Shown piece after piece: positions 45,490 through 63,108 of a stretch of 64,000 bases of DNA. The notes beneath the pieces are model-generated. The model saw only the letters and a program-made list of their open reading frames with translations, made no database searches and had not been told where the DNA came from. The stretch spans positions 3,800 to 67,799 of the forward strand of contig JAHFMX010000001.1 of the NCBI GenBank assembly GCA_023267635.1, in the 5' to 3' direction. Source of the stretch: a bacterium (lineage in GTDB: Bacteria > Patescibacteriota > Minisyncoccia > Phycocordibacterales > UBA5272). How positions within the stretch are numbered: position 1 is the first letter of the stretch; every line of letters starts with the position of its first letter. Position numbers and translations under genes: made by a program.

Positions 45490-46545
45490 TTAGTCAGTAT
45501 TACTCATGGTAAAGAAATAATTATTCTTTAACCTCTCAGAAAATCTGTAAGTATCAGCATGAGAAAGAACGCCGAGATAGGACATTAAAGTTGCATGTAC
45601 TTTGTCTTTTGGGATTTCTTCTCGCTTATAGAGTAATATCTTTTCATTTATTTTCCGCAAAGCACGTTTCTGTGTACGCTTACGAACCAAAGTAAAATGT
45701 GGGAATAATACATATCCAAGATAATCAATACCACGATTAAATTTAGTAATCGAGATTTTCTTCGGGTGTATTTGGATCTTCATTTTTTCTTTTAGAAAAG
45801 AACGTATCTGAGACAATAAATGTATGAGATATTCTTTATTCTCGCTTACTACAACAAAGTCATCAGTATATCGTGCATAATGTTTCACCTTGAGTTCGTG
45901 CTTCATAAATTGATCAAAAACATCCATATACACATTCGCAAAAAGTTGAGACGTTAAGTTACCAATTGGTAAACCGCATCTCTCAAAGAGAGTAGATCTA
46001 CTACTTGTAAAACTTTCCACCACTTCTGTCAGGAGGTCCATCAGTTCCTGGTCCTTGATCCGGGAATCAAGCATGGAAAGTAAAATCTCGTGATTAATTG
46101 AATCGAAAAACTTCTCTATATCGCACTTCAAAATATATACATTTCTTGTGTTATTTTTACTTGCTTTGTAGAGCATGGAACGTAGCGCGCTAACTCCTTT
46201 ATGAGTACCTTTACCAATACGACACGAGAAAGAATTATAAATAAAAGTCTTCTCATAGAGTGGGTATAAAGTACTCATGATTGCATGATGAAGTACTCTG
46301 TCTCTCACTTGCGCTTTATGTATATGGCGACGTTTAGGATCTGAAATATAGAACCCGGTATACCCACTGTGGCGATAGGTATGAGATTTTAGTTCTCTGT
46401 GAAGCGAGAATATTTCTCGTTCAAGACTTTTCTCAAAAAGAAGTACATCCGCTTTCTTTTTCTTGTCACGCCTGAACTCTTCCCAAGCGAAAAACAGATT
46501 TTCTGGAGTAATAAGCTTATTAAATAAATTCGTATAGATTCTCAT
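45490..46545 (-). CDS. Diversity-generating retroelement (DGR) reverse transcriptase
   Basis: RT motifs; YARYTDDFVVV (YxDD catalytic box); LPIGNLTSQLFANVYM (the IGxxxSQ motif characteristic of DGR RTs); lies next to Avd, TR and VR. The track lists 45490..46605; the likely start is MRIYTNLF... at 46545. Confidence 0.8.
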   Translation of the reverse strand: MRIYTNLFNKLITPENLFFAWEEFRRDKKKKADVLLFEKSLEREIFSLHRELKSHTYRHSGYTGFYISDPKRRHIHKAQVRDRVLHHAIMSTLYPLYEKTFIYNSFSCRIGKGTHKGVSALRSMLYKASKNNTRNVYILKCDIEKFFDSINHEILLSMLDSRIKDQELMDLLTEVVESFTSSRSTLFERCGLPIGNLTSQLFANVYMDVFDQFMKHELKVKHYARYTDDFVVVSENKEYLIHLLSQIRSFLKEKMKIQIHPKKISITKFNRGIDYLGYVLFPHFTLVRKRTQKRALRKINEKILLYKREEIPKDKVHATLMSYLGVLSHADTYRFSERLKNNYFFTMSNTD

Positions 46546-46890
46546 ATGAATGATAATGATGTTCCAATATTGCGTAAAATTCATGAGTTGTATAAGACAT
46601 TCCATGAATACAGAAATCTAGTTCCCAAACAAGAACGATTCTCTGTGTACGAACGTACAGAAAATATCATCATTGATATCCTTGAGCTTGTGCTTGAGGC
46701 AAGTTATATTCCCAAAGAAAGAAAAGTAATTCTTCTAGAAAAGACGAGCGTAAAACTCAATATCGTGAGATTTTTTATTCGTCTTATGAAAGAAAGTAAA
46801 AGTCTTGATCTGAAGAAATATACACTCCTGCAAGGAATCATTGATGAGGTTGGTCGTATGCTTGGTGGCTGGATAAAGTCTAGTAAGTAA
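46546..46890 (+). CDS. Accessory variability determinant (Avd) of the DGR
   Basis: 114 aa, helical, C-terminal ...DEVGRMLGGWIKSSK resembles the Bordetella phage bAvd C-terminus (EVGRxLGxW) as recalled. On the opposite strand to the RT; the two start codons abut in CATATG. Confidence 0.55.
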   Translation: MNDNDVPILRKIHELYKTFHEYRNLVPKQERFSVYERTENIIIDILELVLEASYIPKERKVILLEKTSVKLNIVRFFIRLMKESKSLDLKKYTLLQGIIDEVGRMLGGWIKSSK

Positions 46891-46939
46891 TAACAAAAGG
46901 TATCCGCTACGGATACCTTTTGCGCTTAATTGATACTTC

Positions 46940-47059
46940 GGAACGAAGGCGGACACCGAGCCATAGTTGTCATTGGCATTCGACACGTTGTTGGTGTTGA
47001 ACTTGAGCTTGTCGTCGTTGAAGTTGAAGAGCGGAGACCCCGAGAAGTCGCCATCCGCA
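46940..47059 (-). repeat. DGR template repeat (TR)
   Basis: 120-nt match to 47441..47560 with 18 mismatches, every one at a TR adenine in the minus (coding-sense) orientation; AAC-rich when read in frame (NFNDDKLKFNTNNVSNANDNY). Confidence 0.8.
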
Positions 47060-47345
47060 ACCGGAGCTTTTACCACTTTCTGCCCATTCCACAAATCACG
47101 AAGTATGATATTTCGCATAAGTCACGATTCTGTATTTAATCTGACAACACAATTGCTTGTTTGTCTTAGAAAGCAGTAAGCAGTATCTCTAGAGCAACAA
47201 CACTGTCACAAAAACCGTAATCGTTGTGATCCTGATTGCATTTTCTCACAGGAGAAAGAGTTCGGTGATAGTAATCCGTGAACTACTATGCACTAACCTA
47301 GACTCACTAGGTAGTATATCAAAAATATAAAAATTGCCTTCGGCA

Positions 47346-47374
47346 AAAGAAAAAATGGCCTCGCAAGCGAGGCC
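47346..47374 (-). terminator. Rho-independent terminator after the DGR target gene
   Basis: GGCCTCGC-aagc-GCGAGGCC hairpin followed on the minus strand by AUUUUUUCUUUU. Confidence 0.55.
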
Positions 47375-47430
47375 ATTCAAGGGTTCAAGGATCAAGGAGC
47401 CAGAAGACTCAAGACCCCAAGGTGGAAGGA

Positions 47431-48366
47431 TCAACCCTGTGGAACGAAGGCGGACACCGAGCCATAGTAGTCATCGGCATCCGACACGCGGTCGGTGACG
47501 AACTCGAGCCCGCCGCCGCCGAAGTAGAAGAGCGGAGACCCCGAGAAGCCGCCAACCGCATACGGAGCGTACTCGTCGCCGGCGCAGTCGGTGTGCAACT
47601 GCTCCCAGCGGACGTAGCGTTCCGGGTGGACGAGTGCCATGCAGCCGAGCGCGAACGCGCCGAGACCGAATTCGTTCGCCGTGAAGCACTCGCGTGCGCG
47701 ACGGACGGAACGGCCACGGTGGCGCATGCCGTACTGGACGGGGACGATCAGGATGTCGCCATTCTGCCCTTCGGCGATCAGGTCGAGCGCGTGGAGCGTG
47801 CGAGCCGATTGCTTCAGGTAGCGGTTCCCCGTTTCGCCTTCGCGGTAGTTGTAGAAGTTCCGCGACTTGCCGAGCTTCTCGAGAACGAGGTCGATGGCGC
47901 GACAGTACTTCTCGGCGGGGTCGGTGACCTCGGGGAAGAAGCGCTTGGCGACGGCATCCACCGACGGGATCGCGAACCAGCCTTCGGCGCCTTGCGGCAG
48001 CTTCATGGTGGGTAGCGTCTTCTCGATGAACTCGCTCACGTAGCCGAGCGACAGGCCGAACTCCTTCGCGAGGATGTCGACTTGCGCGCCGATCGGCTTC
48101 GGACCGCGGTACTCCTTCGGGTACGTGTAGCTGGATTCCACCTCCTCGCTCGCGAACTGGTCGGTGACCGACAGGTTCTTGATGAGTTGGATGGCCGCTT
48201 CACGGATGCCCGCGGAGAACTCGTTGCCGTGTTCGATCACGCGCTGGGCGCCGGGGTTGTCGAGGCCGACCTCTTCGAGGACCTTGTCGATCGCATCGGA
48301 GCCGAAGCGGTTGATCTGCTTCAGTTGGCCGGGGGTGGCTTGGGACTGCTGAGTAATCGCATTCAT
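47431..48366 (-). CDS. DGR target (variable) protein with C-terminal VR; function unknown
   Basis: 311 aa; VR at the C-terminus; the gene is about 65% GC in a roughly 33% GC background; no signal peptide is obvious. Confidence 0.7.
   Translation of the reverse strand: MNAITQQSQATPGQLKQINRFGSDAIDKVLEEVGLDNPGAQRVIEHGNEFSAGIREAAIQLIKNLSVTDQFASEEVESSYTYPKEYRGPKPIGAQVDILAKEFGLSLGYVSEFIEKTLPTMKLPQGAEGWFAIPSVDAVAKRFFPEVTDPAEKYCRAIDLVLEKLGKSRNFYNYREGETGNRYLKQSARTLHALDLIAEGQNGDILIVPVQYGMRHRGRSVRRARECFTANEFGLGAFALGCMALVHPERYVRWEQLHTDCAGDEYAPYAVGGFSGSPLFYFGGGGLEFVTDRVSDADDYYGSVSAFVPQG
47441..47560 (-). repeat. DGR variable repeat (VR) at the 3' end of the target gene
   Basis: Counterpart of the TR; encodes the last about 40 aa (...PLFYFGGGGLEFVTDRVSDADDYYGSVSAFVPQG); the 3'-most 27 nt are identical to the TR (IMH-like GC-rich segment). 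Confidence 0.8.
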
Positions 48367-48506
48367 TGCGTTATCTCCATGGAAAGGTACTACTTTTCGG
48401 TTTGGACTGTCGAAACAGGTACCAGGAATCTGGTCTATATACTATATCACAAAATACACTAAAAGTCAATAGATTGAAATTGCTTAACACTAAAGGATTT
48501 TTAGTG

Positions 48507-50063
48507 TTATTCCACGTCAACGTAATCTGGATGATACAGAATGCTGTCGTCGCTATCACCTAACCAGAACATGATAATTGTTCCCTCGCTTGCATGCTTC
48601 TCCGTTGTTGCATTGATGAGAAGCGAGAATGCATCAGCTAAGTCATCGTGTTTTTCCACTCCAAACCCAACTAGTTGCTCAATGAGGTTCTCACAGCCTT
48701 GTCGTGGAAATTTAATGATTCCAGACTTTATGGATGTGGATGTAAGCGATAGTCGTGTTCGTTTGTCTCCTTTTGGTTTTATTGCCTCTGCTTTAATGCC
48801 ATGCATGTCTAGCATTTGAGGTAATGCTTCTTGGTAAGAAACACTTTCCACAAAGATGGTATCTCTATGGTCACTCAGCATGGTACTTTTGACATTTTTC
48901 ATCAACTCAACTTGCGCTGGGAAATTAAGCTTTTTCGCGATCGGATTAGGGAGAATGTAAATTCTCATTTTTTCTCTACGGCTATACACGTGCGCAAATA
49001 CAAGAGCGGTAAAGTCTGCAGAATCTTTTTCAGAAATTGCTAAGTCAATGCCGACATAGGTACCTCGATATCCTTTATGTCTTGTTCCAGGCAGTTCATC
49101 ATAGTACTGGATCCATTCTGGATAGATGACTTGGTCATCACTTGGAATGATACGAAGAAGGTATTCTCGTTGCCACGATGCTTCGCTAGCAACTTTAAGC
49201 TTCTCGTCTTCAACATCTTTCGCTGTTGGGTATTTACCAGGCCACAAGCAAACATCTTTCTCATCAAGTAGCGGGTATTCCTTGAATACTCCTTTTGTCC
49301 TACCTTGAGCAATCTCTTCTTTGATTCGCATAAGTAGTGAATCTTCGTGAAGCAGGTTACCAACAATGATAAGGCGAGTCTTTCTGTCTCCTGACGGAAT
49401 GACTTCGCTATAGAGCCAGTTGTATGTTCCATTGCGACCTTCTCTTGTTTTAGTAGATTGCACATCCTCCACGTCGTCGCAGATTATCAAGTCTGGACGA
49501 TGTTGGTTGTGGCGTATGCCTCGGATACTCTGTTCAGTTGACGCAACGGTAATTCTTGCACCATGCTTTTTGAAGACGATAGAGAATGAACCCCACTCGT
49601 CACTTTCTTCCTGGAAAGGACCCAGATCTTTCTTTAAAACATCGTTACCCTCAAGTTCGGTGCGAATGTTCATCATGTGCTGTTTTGCTTGCGCTCTAGT
49701 CTGACAAAAGATCACGCAAAACTTCTTTTGCTGTTTTCCAAGAATCGCCCAGATTGGGTATGCAGTTGTAATCATGGTTGATTTACCAGATCCACGGAAC
49801 GCTACCACGTACAGATTTTCTGTTGGACTATGTTCAAGATAGTGAATTACTTCTTTCTGAAAATCTGCCGTTTCATACTTTACATAGTGGGCGTAGTAGA
49901 AATGAAAGAAATATAAGAAGCTATCTTTGGTAATGGATGTTCTCACTAACCTATCTTTCATCATCTTATTCACCAACTTTGTTTCTATGATTTTATTCAT
50001 GACTTTTGGTATTAATCTTTTTAATGGATTTCGATTTGGTGATGGACGCAAGTTTAAGCGCAT
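48507..50063 (-). CDS. Phage terminase large subunit-like protein (ATPase + RNase-H-like nuclease)
   Basis: Walker A AFRGSGKST, Walker B LIICDDVED, C-terminal nuclease-like VGIDLAISEKDSADFTALV...; 518 aa. Confidence 0.65.
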   Translation of the reverse strand: MRLNLRPSPNRNPLKRLIPKVMNKIIETKLVNKMMKDRLVRTSITKDSFLYFFHFYYAHYVKYETADFQKEVIHYLEHSPTENLYVVAFRGSGKSTMITTAYPIWAILGKQQKKFCVIFCQTRAQAKQHMMNIRTELEGNDVLKKDLGPFQEESDEWGSFSIVFKKHGARITVASTEQSIRGIRHNQHRPDLIICDDVEDVQSTKTREGRNGTYNWLYSEVIPSGDRKTRLIIVGNLLHEDSLLMRIKEEIAQGRTKGVFKEYPLLDEKDVCLWPGKYPTAKDVEDEKLKVASEASWQREYLLRIIPSDDQVIYPEWIQYYDELPGTRHKGYRGTYVGIDLAISEKDSADFTALVFAHVYSRREKMRIYILPNPIAKKLNFPAQVELMKNVKSTMLSDHRDTIFVESVSYQEALPQMLDMHGIKAEAIKPKGDKRTRLSLTSTSIKSGIIKFPRQGCENLIEQLVGFGVEKHDDLADAFSLLINATTEKHASEGTIIMFWLGDSDDSILYHPDYVDVE

Positions 50064-57783: not shown

Positions 57784-59898
57784 ATGGAAAAAACACAAAA
57801 TCACAGCACACATTCATATAACTGCCCGATGCATCCAGAAATCGTGCAGGACAAGCCGGGCATGTGTCCGGAATGCGGCATGAATCTTGTGCCTACCAAA
57901 GCACCGGCAAAAAAGAATGAGCACATTGACCATGACAAACATGCCGGCCATAAAACGTCTTCTTTTCTGATGAAGTTTTGGATTTCGCTTGTTTTCACCA
58001 TCCCGATATTTTTCTACTCCGAAATGGCGATGATGGTGTTTGGCATTCGGGGACCGGAATTTCCCGGCTGGCAATATGCGCTCCTCGCGCTCGGCACCGT
58101 TGTCTATTTCTATTGCGGATGGATATTCCTCGTGGGCGCGTATCGCGAGCTTCGAGCGCGACTTCCCGGCATGATGACGCTTATCGCCATCGCCATCACC
58201 GCCGCGTATGCGTACAGTCTGTTCTCACTGTTGTTGGGCGACATACAGGAACTTATCTTCGAGCTCGCATCTCTTATCACCATCATGCTTCTTGGCCATT
58301 GGATCGAGATGCGGTCAGTGCAAGGCGCGCAAGGCGCATTAAAAGAATTGGCAAAACTCATGCCGGATCAGGCAGAGGTTATTCGAGGTGATAAGACCGA
58401 GATTGTCCCATTAAGCGAACTTAAAGTTGGTGATGTCGTATTAATCAAACCCGGAGCAAAAGTTCCAGCTGACGGAAAAATTATAGATGGTCTTTCGGAG
58501 ATGAATGAGTCTATCATTACAGGCGAATCTAAGCCAGTAGAAAAATCAAAAGGAGACATGGTCATTGCCGGTTCTATCAATGGCGATGGCAGTCTCAAAG
58601 TAGAAATAGAAAAGATCGGCGAGAGTACCTTTCTTGCCGGTATCATGCGACTCGTCGCGGACGCGCAGGCTTCCAAGTCGCGCCTACAGATGCTCTCCGA
58701 TCGAGCCGCGCTGTATTTGACGTTCATCGCTATAGTCGGTGGTGGGATAACCTTTGTCGCATGGCTCATTGCGGGGGGAGGCATCATAACCGCTACCGAG
58801 CGGTTAGTGGCTGTGCTCATCATTACCTGTCCCCACGCACTCGGTCTCGCTGTTCCTCTGGTGGCATCGATCTCAACAACAATGGCGGCGCGCAATGGTC
58901 TATTGGTTCGTCAGCGCATGGCGCTTGAGTCGGCACGAAATATAAATATAGTCCTCTTTGATAAAACCGGCACTCTTACAAAGGGAGAGTTCGGCGTGGA
59001 CACTATTGTTGTAAGTGAGGGCGTGACCGAGAACGAGATTCTTAAGACAGCCGCATCGGTCAACAGTCATTCAGAGCACCCGTTGGCAAAGGCCACGGTT
59101 AAAGAAGCAGAGAAAAGAAAGGTTGCGCTTCTAGATGTCAAAGACTTTACCCGTGTTGCTGGCAAGGGAGCAAAAGGTCAAATTGAAAATAGTGAGGTCT
59201 ATGTCGGCAACGACGACTTTCTTAAGGAGAACAACATCAAACCCTCATTTGAATATAAAAATAAAATAGATGCGCTCTCCAAGCAAGGCAAAACCGTCAT
59301 CCACGTCGTCGTTGATAAAAAACTTATAGGAAGCATGGCCCTTGTTGATGTTATCCGAGAAGAATCACGAGAAGCGATCAAAACACTCAAAGCACACGGT
59401 GTTAAAACTGCCATGATCACCGGCGATTCCGAAGACGTTGCCACATGGGTATCAAAGGAACTCGGTATTGACGAGTATTTCGCCAAGGTCATGCCGGACC
59501 AGAAGGCCGAGAAAGTTAAACTGCTTCAGAGTAAAGGTCAAAAGGTTGCAATGGTTGGCGATGGCATTAATGACGCACCGGCTCTTACTCAAGCTGATCT
59601 CGGCATTGCCATTGGTGCGGGTACAAACGTGGCCATTGAATCGGCTGGTATTATCCTTGTGAGGAATGATCCGCGCGATATTCCGAAGATATTTAATCTC
59701 TCCCGCCTTACCTACAACAAGATGATCCAGAATCTTTTCTGGGCGACTGGCTATAACGTCGTCGCCATTCCGCTTGCGGCCGGAGTCTTAGCTTCTAAGG
59801 GCATCATCCTTCAGTCATGGCTCGCGGCGGTATTTATGTCGGTCAGTACCGTAATTGTCGCATTTAATGCGGTGCTTTTGAGAAGGCAAAAAATTTAA
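57784..59898 (+). CDS. Heavy-metal translocating P1B-type ATPase (CPH-type, copper-exporter-like) with N-terminal Cys-rich metal-binding domain
   Basis: CPH transmembrane motif (IITCPHALGLAVPL), DKTGTLT phosphorylation site, GDGINDAPAL hinge, N-terminal YNCPMHPEI...CPECGM. Confidence 0.85.
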   Translation: MEKTQNHSTHSYNCPMHPEIVQDKPGMCPECGMNLVPTKAPAKKNEHIDHDKHAGHKTSSFLMKFWISLVFTIPIFFYSEMAMMVFGIRGPEFPGWQYALLALGTVVYFYCGWIFLVGAYRELRARLPGMMTLIAIAITAAYAYSLFSLLLGDIQELIFELASLITIMLLGHWIEMRSVQGAQGALKELAKLMPDQAEVIRGDKTEIVPLSELKVGDVVLIKPGAKVPADGKIIDGLSEMNESIITGESKPVEKSKGDMVIAGSINGDGSLKVEIEKIGESTFLAGIMRLVADAQASKSRLQMLSDRAALYLTFIAIVGGGITFVAWLIAGGGIITATERLVAVLIITCPHALGLAVPLVASISTTMAARNGLLVRQRMALESARNINIVLFDKTGTLTKGEFGVDTIVVSEGVTENEILKTAASVNSHSEHPLAKATVKEAEKRKVALLDVKDFTRVAGKGAKGQIENSEVYVGNDDFLKENNIKPSFEYKNKIDALSKQGKTVIHVVVDKKLIGSMALVDVIREESREAIKTLKAHGVKTAMITGDSEDVATWVSKELGIDEYFAKVMPDQKAEKVKLLQSKGQKVAMVGDGINDAPALTQADLGIAIGAGTNVAIESAGIILVRNDPRDIPKIFNLSRLTYNKMIQNLFWATGYNVVAIPLAAGVLASKGIILQSWLAAVFMSVSTVIVAFNAVLLRRQKI

Positions 59899-60686: not shown

Positions 60687-62006
60687 TCACGAAATAGTGA
60701 TGACTTTGTTTTTTAGTGTGATTTTAGAATTTAAACATCTTAAGAATTCTCTTTTTTCTTCTGTACTTCCTTCAACTAAAATAAACTTTGCATAATTTCG
60801 TATATCAATATCTTTTACTGCTACTTGAACTTTAGTACCAAGTAGCATTTGTTGAAAAAGTTTAAATCTCCTTACTTCATTTGTAATTCTTTCTTTCATT
60901 GGAACCACTTGAATATTGAGATCATCAATGAGGTCTTTAAGTTGTTCCACTAGGTCTTCTTCATTGATAAATCCACAAGCGCAATTCTGATCTCTAGTTC
61001 TTGTGCATTTATAGTAGACATATCTATGAACATTACCATTCTGCTGATGTTTAAACTTTTCATCTGCTGTAATTCCTGAGCCACATAATCCACATATCAT
61101 GATTCTTGTAAAAGCAAATTCTTTTTGTTCTGATTTTGGTTCAAATATTTGACTCTTTATTTTCTCTTGCACTAAATCAAAGAGTTCTTTTGTGATGATT
61201 GGAGTATGTGATCCGTTATACCAATTTCCTGAGCTTTTAGGGAACTCAAATCTTCCATAGTAGAAGTGATTTTGTAGTAACCGATAGAAATTACCTAAAC
61301 TTAAATGTATATTGTTCTCGGTCTTAAAATCTTTATCATCTTTAAGCCAACCCCATACCTTTCTACCAGACCACCCATCATAGCCAACTTTTTCAAACAT
61401 CTGTTTAATAAGAGGTGCTCTATCTTTGTCTATAATAGACTCACACTTTTGATCCATTCTTTTAAACTTCGTATATCCAGTAGGAGGACGACATGGCCAT
61501 AATCCCATTTCAACTCTTGCTCTTAAACCTCTCTTAACATTGATACTCTTATTATCATTCTCTAACTTTGCCTGAGAACACAAAATCATTAACAAGAACT
61601 TTTCATTAGGTGAGTTAGAAAAAGTTTGTCCATATGTTTGTATGTGTATTAATTTTCTTTGATCCATTAAATCAACTAAACTACCTAAATCTCCAGCGTT
61701 ACGACTTAATCTATCAGGTGCCCACGTTAGTACTCCATTAAACTTTCCTTGGTCTATATCTTGTAATAGCTGTTTATATACTGGTCGCTGTCCTGAAGCT
61801 TTAGCGCTATGTGATTCTCGTTTAACTTCTACTACATACAGTCCTAAACGCTCTGCTATTGCCTGCATTTCTTTGATCTGTGAATCTATCGACAGTGCTT
61901 GCATTTCATCTGACTCAGTCGATTTTCTGGCATATAAGCAATATTTAACTCTTACTTCTGATAAAGTTACAGTACTATGTATCTTTCCAATTGTTCTTGT
62001 TTCCAT
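60687..62006 (-). CDS. Large serine recombinase (paralog of 39799..41082)
   Basis: KYCLYARKSTE, SIDSQIKEM, TWAPDRLSRNAGDLG, CGLCGSG zinc ribbon; 439 aa. Many identical blocks with the 39.8-kb copy, and the same upstream palindrome. Confidence 0.85.
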   Translation of the reverse strand: METRTIGKIHSTVTLSEVRVKYCLYARKSTESDEMQALSIDSQIKEMQAIAERLGLYVVEVKRESHSAKASGQRPVYKQLLQDIDQGKFNGVLTWAPDRLSRNAGDLGSLVDLMDQRKLIHIQTYGQTFSNSPNEKFLLMILCSQAKLENDNKSINVKRGLRARVEMGLWPCRPPTGYTKFKRMDQKCESIIDKDRAPLIKQMFEKVGYDGWSGRKVWGWLKDDKDFKTENNIHLSLGNFYRLLQNHFYYGRFEFPKSSGNWYNGSHTPIITKELFDLVQEKIKSQIFEPKSEQKEFAFTRIMICGLCGSGITADEKFKHQQNGNVHRYVYYKCTRTRDQNCACGFINEEDLVEQLKDLIDDLNIQVVPMKERITNEVRRFKLFQQMLLGTKVQVAVKDIDIRNYAKFILVEGSTEEKREFLRCLNSKITLKNKVITIS

Positions 62007-62274
62007 ATTATATTAATGACAGAGATCACTAGTCTTGCTAAGTCTATGCAGAACTAAAAAAGACGACATTATGAGAAGAATTATTGTCTACAAAAATGCC
62101 TTAGCAAAAGAGGTTATTTGCGATATAATCAATAGATTAATACAAGAGTATTAAGTGGAAAAATTTGCAGTAGCCTAGCCCTTTAAGCAATTAAAGATAT
62201 GGTGGAAAAGTCCTATCAGATCAAAAACCCCATCATGTGGGCTTTGCTCTGATAGGCCATATCTGGAAACGGAT

Positions 62275-63108
62275 ATGAAGGTCGTAAGACCTTACTCACG
62301 TGGTGGGATTTTTGCTACCCAACGAGAGATTACTAAGTCCTATCAGACATATATGAACCAATCAGTATCTCCTTTCGGAGATCATTTTAAATATTTAGTA
62401 GAAGAACGAATCAAAAACTTTTGGGGCTACGGTAACCTTAAAAGTGATATATGGTTTGTCGGAATGGAAGAAGGTCATAGTGGAGATATTGAAAGTTTAG
62501 TCAAAAGACTAGAAGCTACGAAAGATAAAGAGATGTTAGATATTTATGATGATATGAAGCATGATGTTGCTCATATGAAATGGTTTGAAGAAGGAGCAAA
62601 AACTCAAGCAACATATCGTCGATTAATTTACATATTACTCTATCTTAAGAATAAGGTAGAGCCAACAATAGAAGAGATACGACAATTTCAAATAAAAGAA
62701 TTTGGTAGAAAAACATCAAATCATACAGCATTAGAATTAATGCCACTTCCTGCAAAATCTATTAATGCTAAAGATTGGGTATACAAGGAAGCAAATGTTG
62801 AAGGACTACATACTCGAAAAGAATACTTAGCGACATATAGACCAAAACGAATAGCACGATTACGTGAATTAATTTCTAAGCATAAACCAAAGATTGTTAT
62901 TTTCTATTCCAGAGTATATTTACCAGAATGGAGAGAAACGATACCTGTACCTTTAGAAGAAATTAAGGATACTAAACTTCACATAGCAAAAGACCACAAC
63001 ACGTTATATGTTGTAGTCCCTCACTCAACCTCTTACGGCATATCACTTAGTGATTGGAAGAAGATTGCAGAAACCTTACTTAGTCACCATACTCATCGTC
63101 GTCATTAA
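62275..63108 (+). CDS. Hypothetical protein
   Basis: 277 aa, no motif recognised. Confidence 0.3.
   Translation: MKVVRPYSRGGIFATQREITKSYQTYMNQSVSPFGDHFKYLVEERIKNFWGYGNLKSDIWFVGMEEGHSGDIESLVKRLEATKDKEMLDIYDDMKHDVAHMKWFEEGAKTQATYRRLIYILLYLKNKVEPTIEEIRQFQIKEFGRKTSNHTALELMPLPAKSINAKDWVYKEANVEGLHTRKEYLATYRPKRIARLRELISKHKPKIVIFYSRVYLPEWRETIPVPLEEIKDTKLHIAKDHNTLYVVVPHSTSYGISLSDWKKIAETLLSHHTHRRH

Follow-up and report, generated by a model that had tools for sequence, protein, structure and literature searches.

GC enrichment bounded by the target open reading frame in a Patescibacteria-type diversity-generating retroelement and its relatives

In prokaryotes, no natural system of targeted protein hypermutation is known other than diversity-generating retroelements (DGRs), and these are significantly enriched in Patescibacteria (Roux et al., 2021; PMC8144416). 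The DGR cassette described here lies in a stretch of 64,000 nucleotides (contig JAHFMX010000001.1 of assembly GCA_023267635.1, positions 3,800 to 67,799 of the forward strand; GTDB lineage Bacteria; Patescibacteriota; Minisyncoccia; Phycocordibacterales; UBA5272), which is referred to below as the window. The gene of its variable protein, the target gene, forms a GC-rich island in a low-GC sequence. The cassette resembles the Patescibacteria/candidate phyla radiation (CPR) 'DGR clade 2' (Roux et al., 2021; PMC8144416) in its set of parts, namely a reverse transcriptase (RT), Avd, a template repeat (TR) and a C-terminal, adenine-specific variable repeat (VR), and in the host range of its homologues, which is Patescibacteria. 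The CPR targets in that study were without a recognisable domain or transmembrane segment, and so is the target in the window. Clade 2 is almost entirely cell-encoded according to the same source (PMC8144416), whereas the cassette in the window adjoins terminase genes in a prophage-like element.

With Bordetella phage BPP-1 (mtd-avd-TR-brt) and other phage DGRs the cassette shares the anatomy of TR-to-VR homing; the GC-rich 3' block of its repeats may correspond to their initiation of mutagenic homing (IMH) element, and a hairpin, here terminator-like, lies downstream of the VR. Unlike in those elements, Avd lies on the opposite strand, its start codon directly adjoining the RT start codon. 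GC enrichment ends at the VR and TR in 12 of the 13 phage DGRs used as controls, whereas in the window the entire target open reading frame (ORF) is shifted. A GC deviation of the whole DGR has been taken as evidence of transfer, with a 5% criterion (Wu et al., 2018; PMC5758913). The target in the window, like those islands, departs from the host far beyond 5%; unlike in those islands, only the target ORF and the TR deviate, and they do so in every lineage examined.

The reading preferred here, to which we give a probability of about 0.7, is that this is an ORF-bounded, clade-wide, mostly synonymous and actively maintained GC enrichment and not foreign DNA.

Composition of the target gene and its recurrence

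The island consists of one ORF at 47431..48366 on the minus strand (311 aa), with a GC content of 0.640 and values of 0.64, 0.42 and 0.86 at the first, second and third codon positions (GC1, GC2 and GC3). In 200-nt sliding windows the GC content rises from 0.41 (47200-47399) to 0.635-0.68 (47400-47799), remains at 0.59-0.65 as far as 48399 and is down to 0.425 and then 0.375 beyond that point. On inspection of the sequence, the change coincides with the start and stop codons of the target. The promoter, leader, 3' untranslated region (UTR), VR-TR spacer, Avd and RT are host-like in composition; the promoter-like site, the AT-rich leader and the terminator-like hairpin all lie outside the GC-rich block. 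GC and GC3 are 0.348 and 0.34 for the RT, 0.342 and 0.31 for Avd, 0.412 and 0.39 for the large terminase (TerL) and 0.441 and 0.46 for the ParB-methyltransferase.

The GC content of the window as a whole is 37.4%. Windows of the length of the target ORF taken outside the region have a mean GC of 0.369 (standard deviation 0.045, maximum 0.519), which places the island about six standard deviations above the ORF-length windows elsewhere in the window. Among the 46 non-overlapping ORFs of at least 150 aa, GC3 is 0.86 in the target and 0.19-0.52 in the remaining 45. The background itself is mildly heterogeneous, at 0.28-0.44 over the greater part of the window, with the mobile-element part (48.5-60 kb) at 0.41-0.51. 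As a block, this part has a GC content of about 0.41-0.49 against 0.30-0.37 in most of the remaining window; it contains the ORF that ranks second in GC (57784-59898, 704 aa, ATPase-like, phrog_12316; GC 0.49, GC3 0.52).

A preceding sequence-only reading had described the island, called the ORF a DGR target and proposed a sliding-window GC profile, in which the abrupt rise and fall are indeed seen at both ends. Its edges (about 47400 and 48370) were placed within 30 nt of the stop codon and 4 nt of the start codon, and the island is real: the target is the sole ORF of the 46 with GC3 above 0.52. The background had been put at about 33% GC; it is low as claimed, although the value is nearer 37%. 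The TR had been called far more GC-rich than its flanks, which is true, but more weakly so than for the ORF (0.53 overall). The Ala/Arg/Gly-rich antisense ORFs it mentioned are present, for example at 47422..48015 on the plus strand (197 aa).

Codons that end in G or C, above all those in C, are enriched; the effect stays within the limits of the ORF and mainly concerns synonymous sites. In the window target the codon counts are AAG 13 and AAA 0, TTC 17 and TTT 0, ATC 14 and ATT 1, CTC 15, CGC 14 and GGC 25. Targets exceed their own RT by about 0.30 in GC3, 0.17 in GC1 and 0.12 in GC2, and exceed the other ORFs of the same loci by 0.06 to 0.15 in GC1 and GC2. When compared at matched GC content of fourfold-degenerate sites (GC4), C/(C+G) is 0.55-0.60 in targets and 0.50-0.53 in host ORFs, and targets have less A relative to T than host ORFs do. 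The TR is GC-rich only as the master copy of the VR; its GC content at non-adenine positions (0.69) is the same as that of the target gene.

Two sets of related loci (numbered L001 and upwards) were assembled. For the target-anchored set, species-representative genomes were scanned with an alignment of the target family, which gave 80 loci. The target homologue is more GC-rich than its flanks in 80/80 (mean difference +0.144 to +0.149, range +0.04 to +0.29) and is the most GC-rich ORF-length window in 54 of the 64 loci of at least 8 kb (median z = 4.4). Its GC content exceeds that of RT and Avd in every related locus where either was found (for example 0.629 versus 0.274 in L067 and 0.648 versus 0.324 in L030). 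In the averaged profile of 67 homologous loci, GC content goes up from 0.38 to 0.53, a step that takes place within 20 nt of the start codon, and the stop codon marks a fall from about 0.6 to 0.41. Hosts with a GC content of 0.55-0.58 still carry targets that are 0.06-0.10 higher, and none of the host genomes sampled was at the GC content of the target.

The RT-anchored set, in which ascertainment through the target was avoided, was obtained by searching metagenome contigs with an RT alignment and locating TR/VR pairs by their adenine-specific mismatches. The GC content of the target outside the VR is above that of the RT in all 33 measurable cassettes (mean 0.533 versus 0.359, minimum difference +0.056), and target GC3 is the highest of all ORFs in 20/20 loci. 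BLAST groups the VR-bearing ORFs of this set into at least six clusters. In profile comparisons, two clusters other than that of the window had no similarity to the target family of the window (hhalign probability 0.1-0.2%); since the excess is seen in unrelated VR-bearing ORFs, the ancestry of one protein family is ruled out as its source. Targets that lack an RT within 3-10 kb are equally enriched, which rules out dependence on an adjacent RT. GC enrichment is thus common to the targets of the whole Patescibacteria DGR clade, across unrelated target families.

The controls were 13 non-Patescibacteria phage DGRs (Bacillus, crAss-like, Bacteroides, Butyrivibrio, Pseudoalteromonas, Shewanella, Aeromonas and others). 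Their VR and TR are GC-rich; GC3 of the target outside the VR is within about 0.07 of RT GC3 in 12 of the 13, and the outlier (+0.11) is a partial ORF of 69 aa. A general property of DGR targets is therefore ruled out by these 13 elements. The claim that it is unusual for a target to be foreign in composition to its own RT holds against them and fails within this Patescibacteria DGR clade, where it is the rule.

Some side observations were made on the related loci. The RT homologue of L033 (9075-10178) contains two in-frame stop codons and may be a pseudogene or reflect a sequencing error or an alternative code. Several metagenome-assembled genomes that carry the family (L007, L015, L016, L021, L025, L036, L046 and L054), one of which is a 1.0-Mb chromosome, are titled 'uncultured Gammaproteobacteria' or 'Saccharibacteria'; these titles look like placeholders and not real taxonomy. 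Many homologues (L012, L013, L018, L040, L042, L047 and others) have a hairpin-forming leader just upstream of the ribosome-binding site, for example ATGAGGYRGC...GCYRCCTCAT followed by CCGGARCGAYTCCGG. The averaged profile owes its GC bump at -60 to -20 to these leaders, and an inverted repeat with GGTACC arms occupies the same place in the window.

Layout and activity of the cassette

The features of the cassette and its upstream neighbour are as follows.

45490..46545, minus strand: DGR RT, GC 0.35 (Pfam RVT_1, E = 1.2e-28)
46546..46890, plus strand: Avd, GC 0.34, on the strand opposite RT, TR and target (Pfam bAvd PF22296, E = 4.8e-17)
46893..46923, no strand assigned: hairpin with a 14-bp stem, between the 3' end of the TR and the stop codon of Avd
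46940..47067, minus strand: TR, GC 0.53 overall and 0.69 at non-adenine positions
47068..47430, minus strand: VR-TR spacer, AT-rich (GC 0.41), holding the 3' UTR and the terminator
47353..47378, minus strand: terminator-like hairpin with a T-run, 53 nt past the target stop codon
47431..48366, minus strand: target (variable protein) ORF, 311 aa
47441..47568, minus strand: VR, last ~44 residues of the target, aligning to the TR at an offset of 501 nt
48386..48423, minus strand: inverted repeat with arms GGTACC...GGTACC in the AT-rich 5' leader, read from the sequence
48441..48469, minus strand: promoter-like site TTGACT-17-TATAGT (10/12, extended -10), about 75 nt upstream of the target start
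48507..50063, minus strand: TerL, directly upstream of the target (Terminase_6N/6C scores just under the Pfam cut-offs)

The locus is a DGR of known kind, with RT, Avd, an adenine-specific TR/VR pair and the VR at the 3' end of an ORF, and the earlier identification of this ORF as the target is confirmed by the Pfam matches of RT and Avd and by the mismatch pattern of the repeats. TR and VR form a repeat pair of 128 nt, in which a core of 124 nt contains 21 mismatches, 19 of them at TR adenines. The GC-rich 3' block of 23 nt, GGCTCGGTGTCCGCCTTCGTTCC, is the same in both repeats and divergence begins directly after it; from its sequence the block appears IMH-like (IMH/IMH*). Read along the minus strand, the order is TerL, target with VR, spacer, TR, Avd (opposite strand) and RT. 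The opposite-strand arrangement of Avd recurs in the related loci in which an Avd homologue was found, including 38/38 RT-anchored cassettes. The spacer is 82-83% identical to that of L020 and L017 and host-like in composition.

The mechanically called RT ORF extends to 46605; the alignment of its relatives begins at MRIY..., and the start codon is likely to be the ATG at 46545-46543. The start codons of RT and Avd would then stand back to back on opposite strands as CATATG (46543-46548), with zero intergenic space. The RT is 33-36% identical to the best annotated phage DGR RTs, including that of Bordetella phage BMP-1 (32.5%). The palindromic match of the hairpin at 46893-46923 is conserved in L017, L019, L020 and L023; the hairpin may act as a terminator in both directions or may belong to the DGR RNA.

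The target protein gave no match in Pfam or PHROG, and its AlphaFold2 model (predicted local distance difference test score 85) gave no Foldseek match in the PDB or BFVD. Homologues in the databases number 2424, and those bearing a source name are from Patescibacteria. No paralogue of the target other than the TR was found within the window.

Since TerL, TerS, a ParB-methyltransferase and a serine integrase are found near it, the cassette is placed in a prophage-like element of a Patescibacteria-type genome. A full-length LOOT RNA (RF03000, 83 bits; 62172-62293) adjoins the serine integrase gene (60687-62006). The only tRNAs within the window are tRNA-Val(GAC) and tRNA-Glu(UUC).

The exact target protein is on record on four contigs. 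Contigs L001, L002, L083 and L084, from four other runs (SRR14366791, SRR14366796, SRR7877885 and SRR7877888), span both GC junctions, and their intergenic and downstream flanks are 100% identical to those of the window. Comparison of the window with L083/L084 gives 16 differences over the 131 positions of the VR, one over the other 805 positions of the gene and none in the intergenic and downstream flanks. The DGR is active, and diversification between samples is confined to the VR; contigs from other runs that span the junctions and differ almost only in the VR are what an active DGR, and not a chimera, gives.

Exchange and maintenance of the target ORF

RT and target pairwise identities are only loosely correlated (r = 0.53). 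Compared with L020 and L017, the window is 88% identical in the RT, 91-93% in Avd and 82% in TerL; the targets are 55-63% identical (55% for L020), and those of L020 and L017 are much less GC-rich (0.51-0.52). Nucleotide homology to L020 runs through TerL and resumes only at 47760, in the conserved C-terminal third of the target; past this breakpoint the window has G or C at 33 of the 36 GC/AT differences. Residues 60-200 of the target are nearer to alleles of the L003 type than to those of the L020 type. The viral contig L177 has an RT 89%, a TerL 82% and a target only 46% identical to the window, and the converse is seen between L018 and L021, with targets 93% and RTs 57% identical. These alignments show the target ORF as an exchangeable module, swapped between cassettes. 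Recombination between the conserved end of TerL and the conserved C-terminal/VR-TR region replaces the target among related elements. Within one phage lineage (the window, L020, L176 and L177, with TerL 77-82% identical), at least four target alleles that are 41-63% identical occupy the slot between TerL and TR (47760-48595).

The nearest divergent allele, L085, is 92.5% identical in nucleotides over the ORF and 72% in the flanks; the intergenic region upstream, which accompanies it, is AT-rich, with 80% identity to that of the window.

Third-position changes outside the VR were polarised on 20 terminal branches of the family tree. The lineage of the window itself lies outside the polarised set (outside the VR, L083/L084 differ at a single site, and the relative after them is too far removed). 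There were 182 GC-to-AT and 126 AT-to-GC changes, a GC-to-AT fraction of 182/308 (0.59). Neutral relaxation to the GC content of the flanks predicts 0.76, and a fraction as low as 0.59 was reached in 0 of 20000 simulations. In the sub-clade nearest to the cassette of the window (GC3 about 0.5, hosts at 0.34-0.43 GC) the changes are balanced (49:48). Because these fractions are far from neutral amelioration, they indicate that a GC-favouring fixation bias acts on the target genes and probably holds their GC content above host composition.

Explanations for the enrichment

The abrupt change in composition, and nothing more, would suggest that the gene of a high-GC organism had been joined into a low-GC contig during assembly. 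Such a chimera is ruled out by the four contigs from other runs, which reproduce both junctions with 100% identical flanks; moreover, the TR on the low-GC side matches the VR, from which the sequence-only reading had already argued against a chimera, and the same architecture is found in more than 100 loci. A recent horizontal acquisition of target and TR from a high-GC donor, with amelioration still to come, had been proposed in the same reading. Codon usage of the target is indeed like that of a bacterium of 65% GC, and the cassettes nearest by RT, Avd and TerL carry different, less GC-rich alleles, so that the allele in the window arrived by replacement. The same excess is nevertheless present in 80/80 and 33/33 related loci, unrelated target families included. 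The sampled hosts never match the composition of the target, and every named homologue comes from Patescibacteria-type genomes. The atypical composition stops at the start and stop codons without non-coding flanks, and AT-rich sequence makes up the spacer, the flanks of the TR and the upstream region accompanying the allele. With third-position substitutions at a GC-to-AT fraction of 0.59 where 0.76 was expected, a one-off import is ruled out by recurrence and the substitution test, and recent acquisition in general is very improbable. The evidence favours instead the alternative that had been offered beside it, unusual constraints on composition, given the clade-wide recurrence and the GC-favouring fixation bias.

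For an enrichment that is maintained, the force we favour is selection acting on the coding sequence, on its codons or its nucleotide composition, because the bounds are exactly those of the ORF, third positions dominate and pyrimidine-ending codons are preferred. The main rival, which we consider possible but unlikely, is GC-biased gene conversion (gBGC), with the target ORF as a recombination hot spot (through allele swapping and possibly conversion between paralogues) at which heteroduplex repair favours G:C. It would account for the fixation bias toward GC, the strongly discordant histories of target and RT with a mosaic breakpoint near 47760, the rise of GC1 and GC2 with GC3 in roughly the proportions of a genome-wide GC pressure, the excess in targets that have no RT beside them and the avoidance of A-ending codons. 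The process is strand-symmetric, yet at fourfold sites targets favour C over G and T over A more than matched host ORFs do; GC content changes very sharply at the start and stop codons, and the homologous flanks of near-identical relatives stay AT-rich. To our knowledge, a GC3 shift of +0.3 to +0.5 is also far beyond the reported effects of gBGC in bacteria. Selection and gBGC are the two candidate causes of the enrichment. A further proposal, that the DGR RT sometimes copies the whole target mRNA and that A-to-N errors erode adenines throughout the ORF, fits the rarity of A at fourfold sites (0.024 in the window, 0.127 family-wide) and the A/(A+T) ratio somewhat below that of matched host ORFs. 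It would be expected to leave A-specific transversions outside the VR, and the spectrum is ordinary and A/T-symmetric: non-VR third positions show 50 A>G, 9 A>C and 8 A>T changes against 50 T>C, 17 T>G and 9 T>A, and the per-site rate at A (0.096) is not above that at T (0.120). T is depleted as well as A, and the UTRs of the same transcript are unaffected. Collateral mutagenesis was rejected on this basis and is even less credible than a recent import.

Several points weigh against an actively maintained enrichment under selection. A-ending codons are avoided even where a UNN tRNA normally favours them, which fits poorly with simple translational optimisation. The excess extends to GC1 and GC2, by 0.06-0.15, as a general nucleotide-level pressure including gBGC would give. 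The GC-to-AT fraction is 0.59 and not 0.50, and there may be some net decay. The control set is small, at 13 DGRs, and covers phages only. Finally, a target-specific GC excess is not mentioned in the accessible DGR literature and the clade-wide anomaly appears to be previously unremarked there, but this coverage leaves out the paper by Paul and co-workers in Nat Microbiol (2017), reportedly the main one on CPR/Patescibacteria DGRs, so an earlier mention is possible.

On a more speculative reading, recoding of the whole ORF toward GC-rich, C-ending codons may be a functional requirement in Patescibacteria DGRs, tied to the working of the retroelement or to expression of the hypervariable protein; this is put forward as a tentative idea only. 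Recoding might restrict homing of the cDNA to the VR, might control translation of a protein whose C-terminus is constantly rewritten or might serve expression in a different cellular context. If such a requirement exists, composition alone would flag DGR targets in these genomes, remote ones included.

The shift described here amounts to 20-50 points of GC3 and is gene-specific, clade-wide and limited to the ORF; it spans unrelated target families and is missing from the other DGRs compared. Atypical GC content in DGR loci should accordingly not be taken as a sign of horizontal transfer or misassembly, and it may serve as a simple compositional marker for DGR targets, including those far from any RT. 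The pattern points to an unrecognised constraint or biased process acting on the genes of hypervariable proteins in ultra-small bacteria. If selection is the cause, the pattern would tell something about the expression that these proteins need or the confinement of homing; if biased conversion is the cause, these genes would be an unusually strong bacterial example of it.

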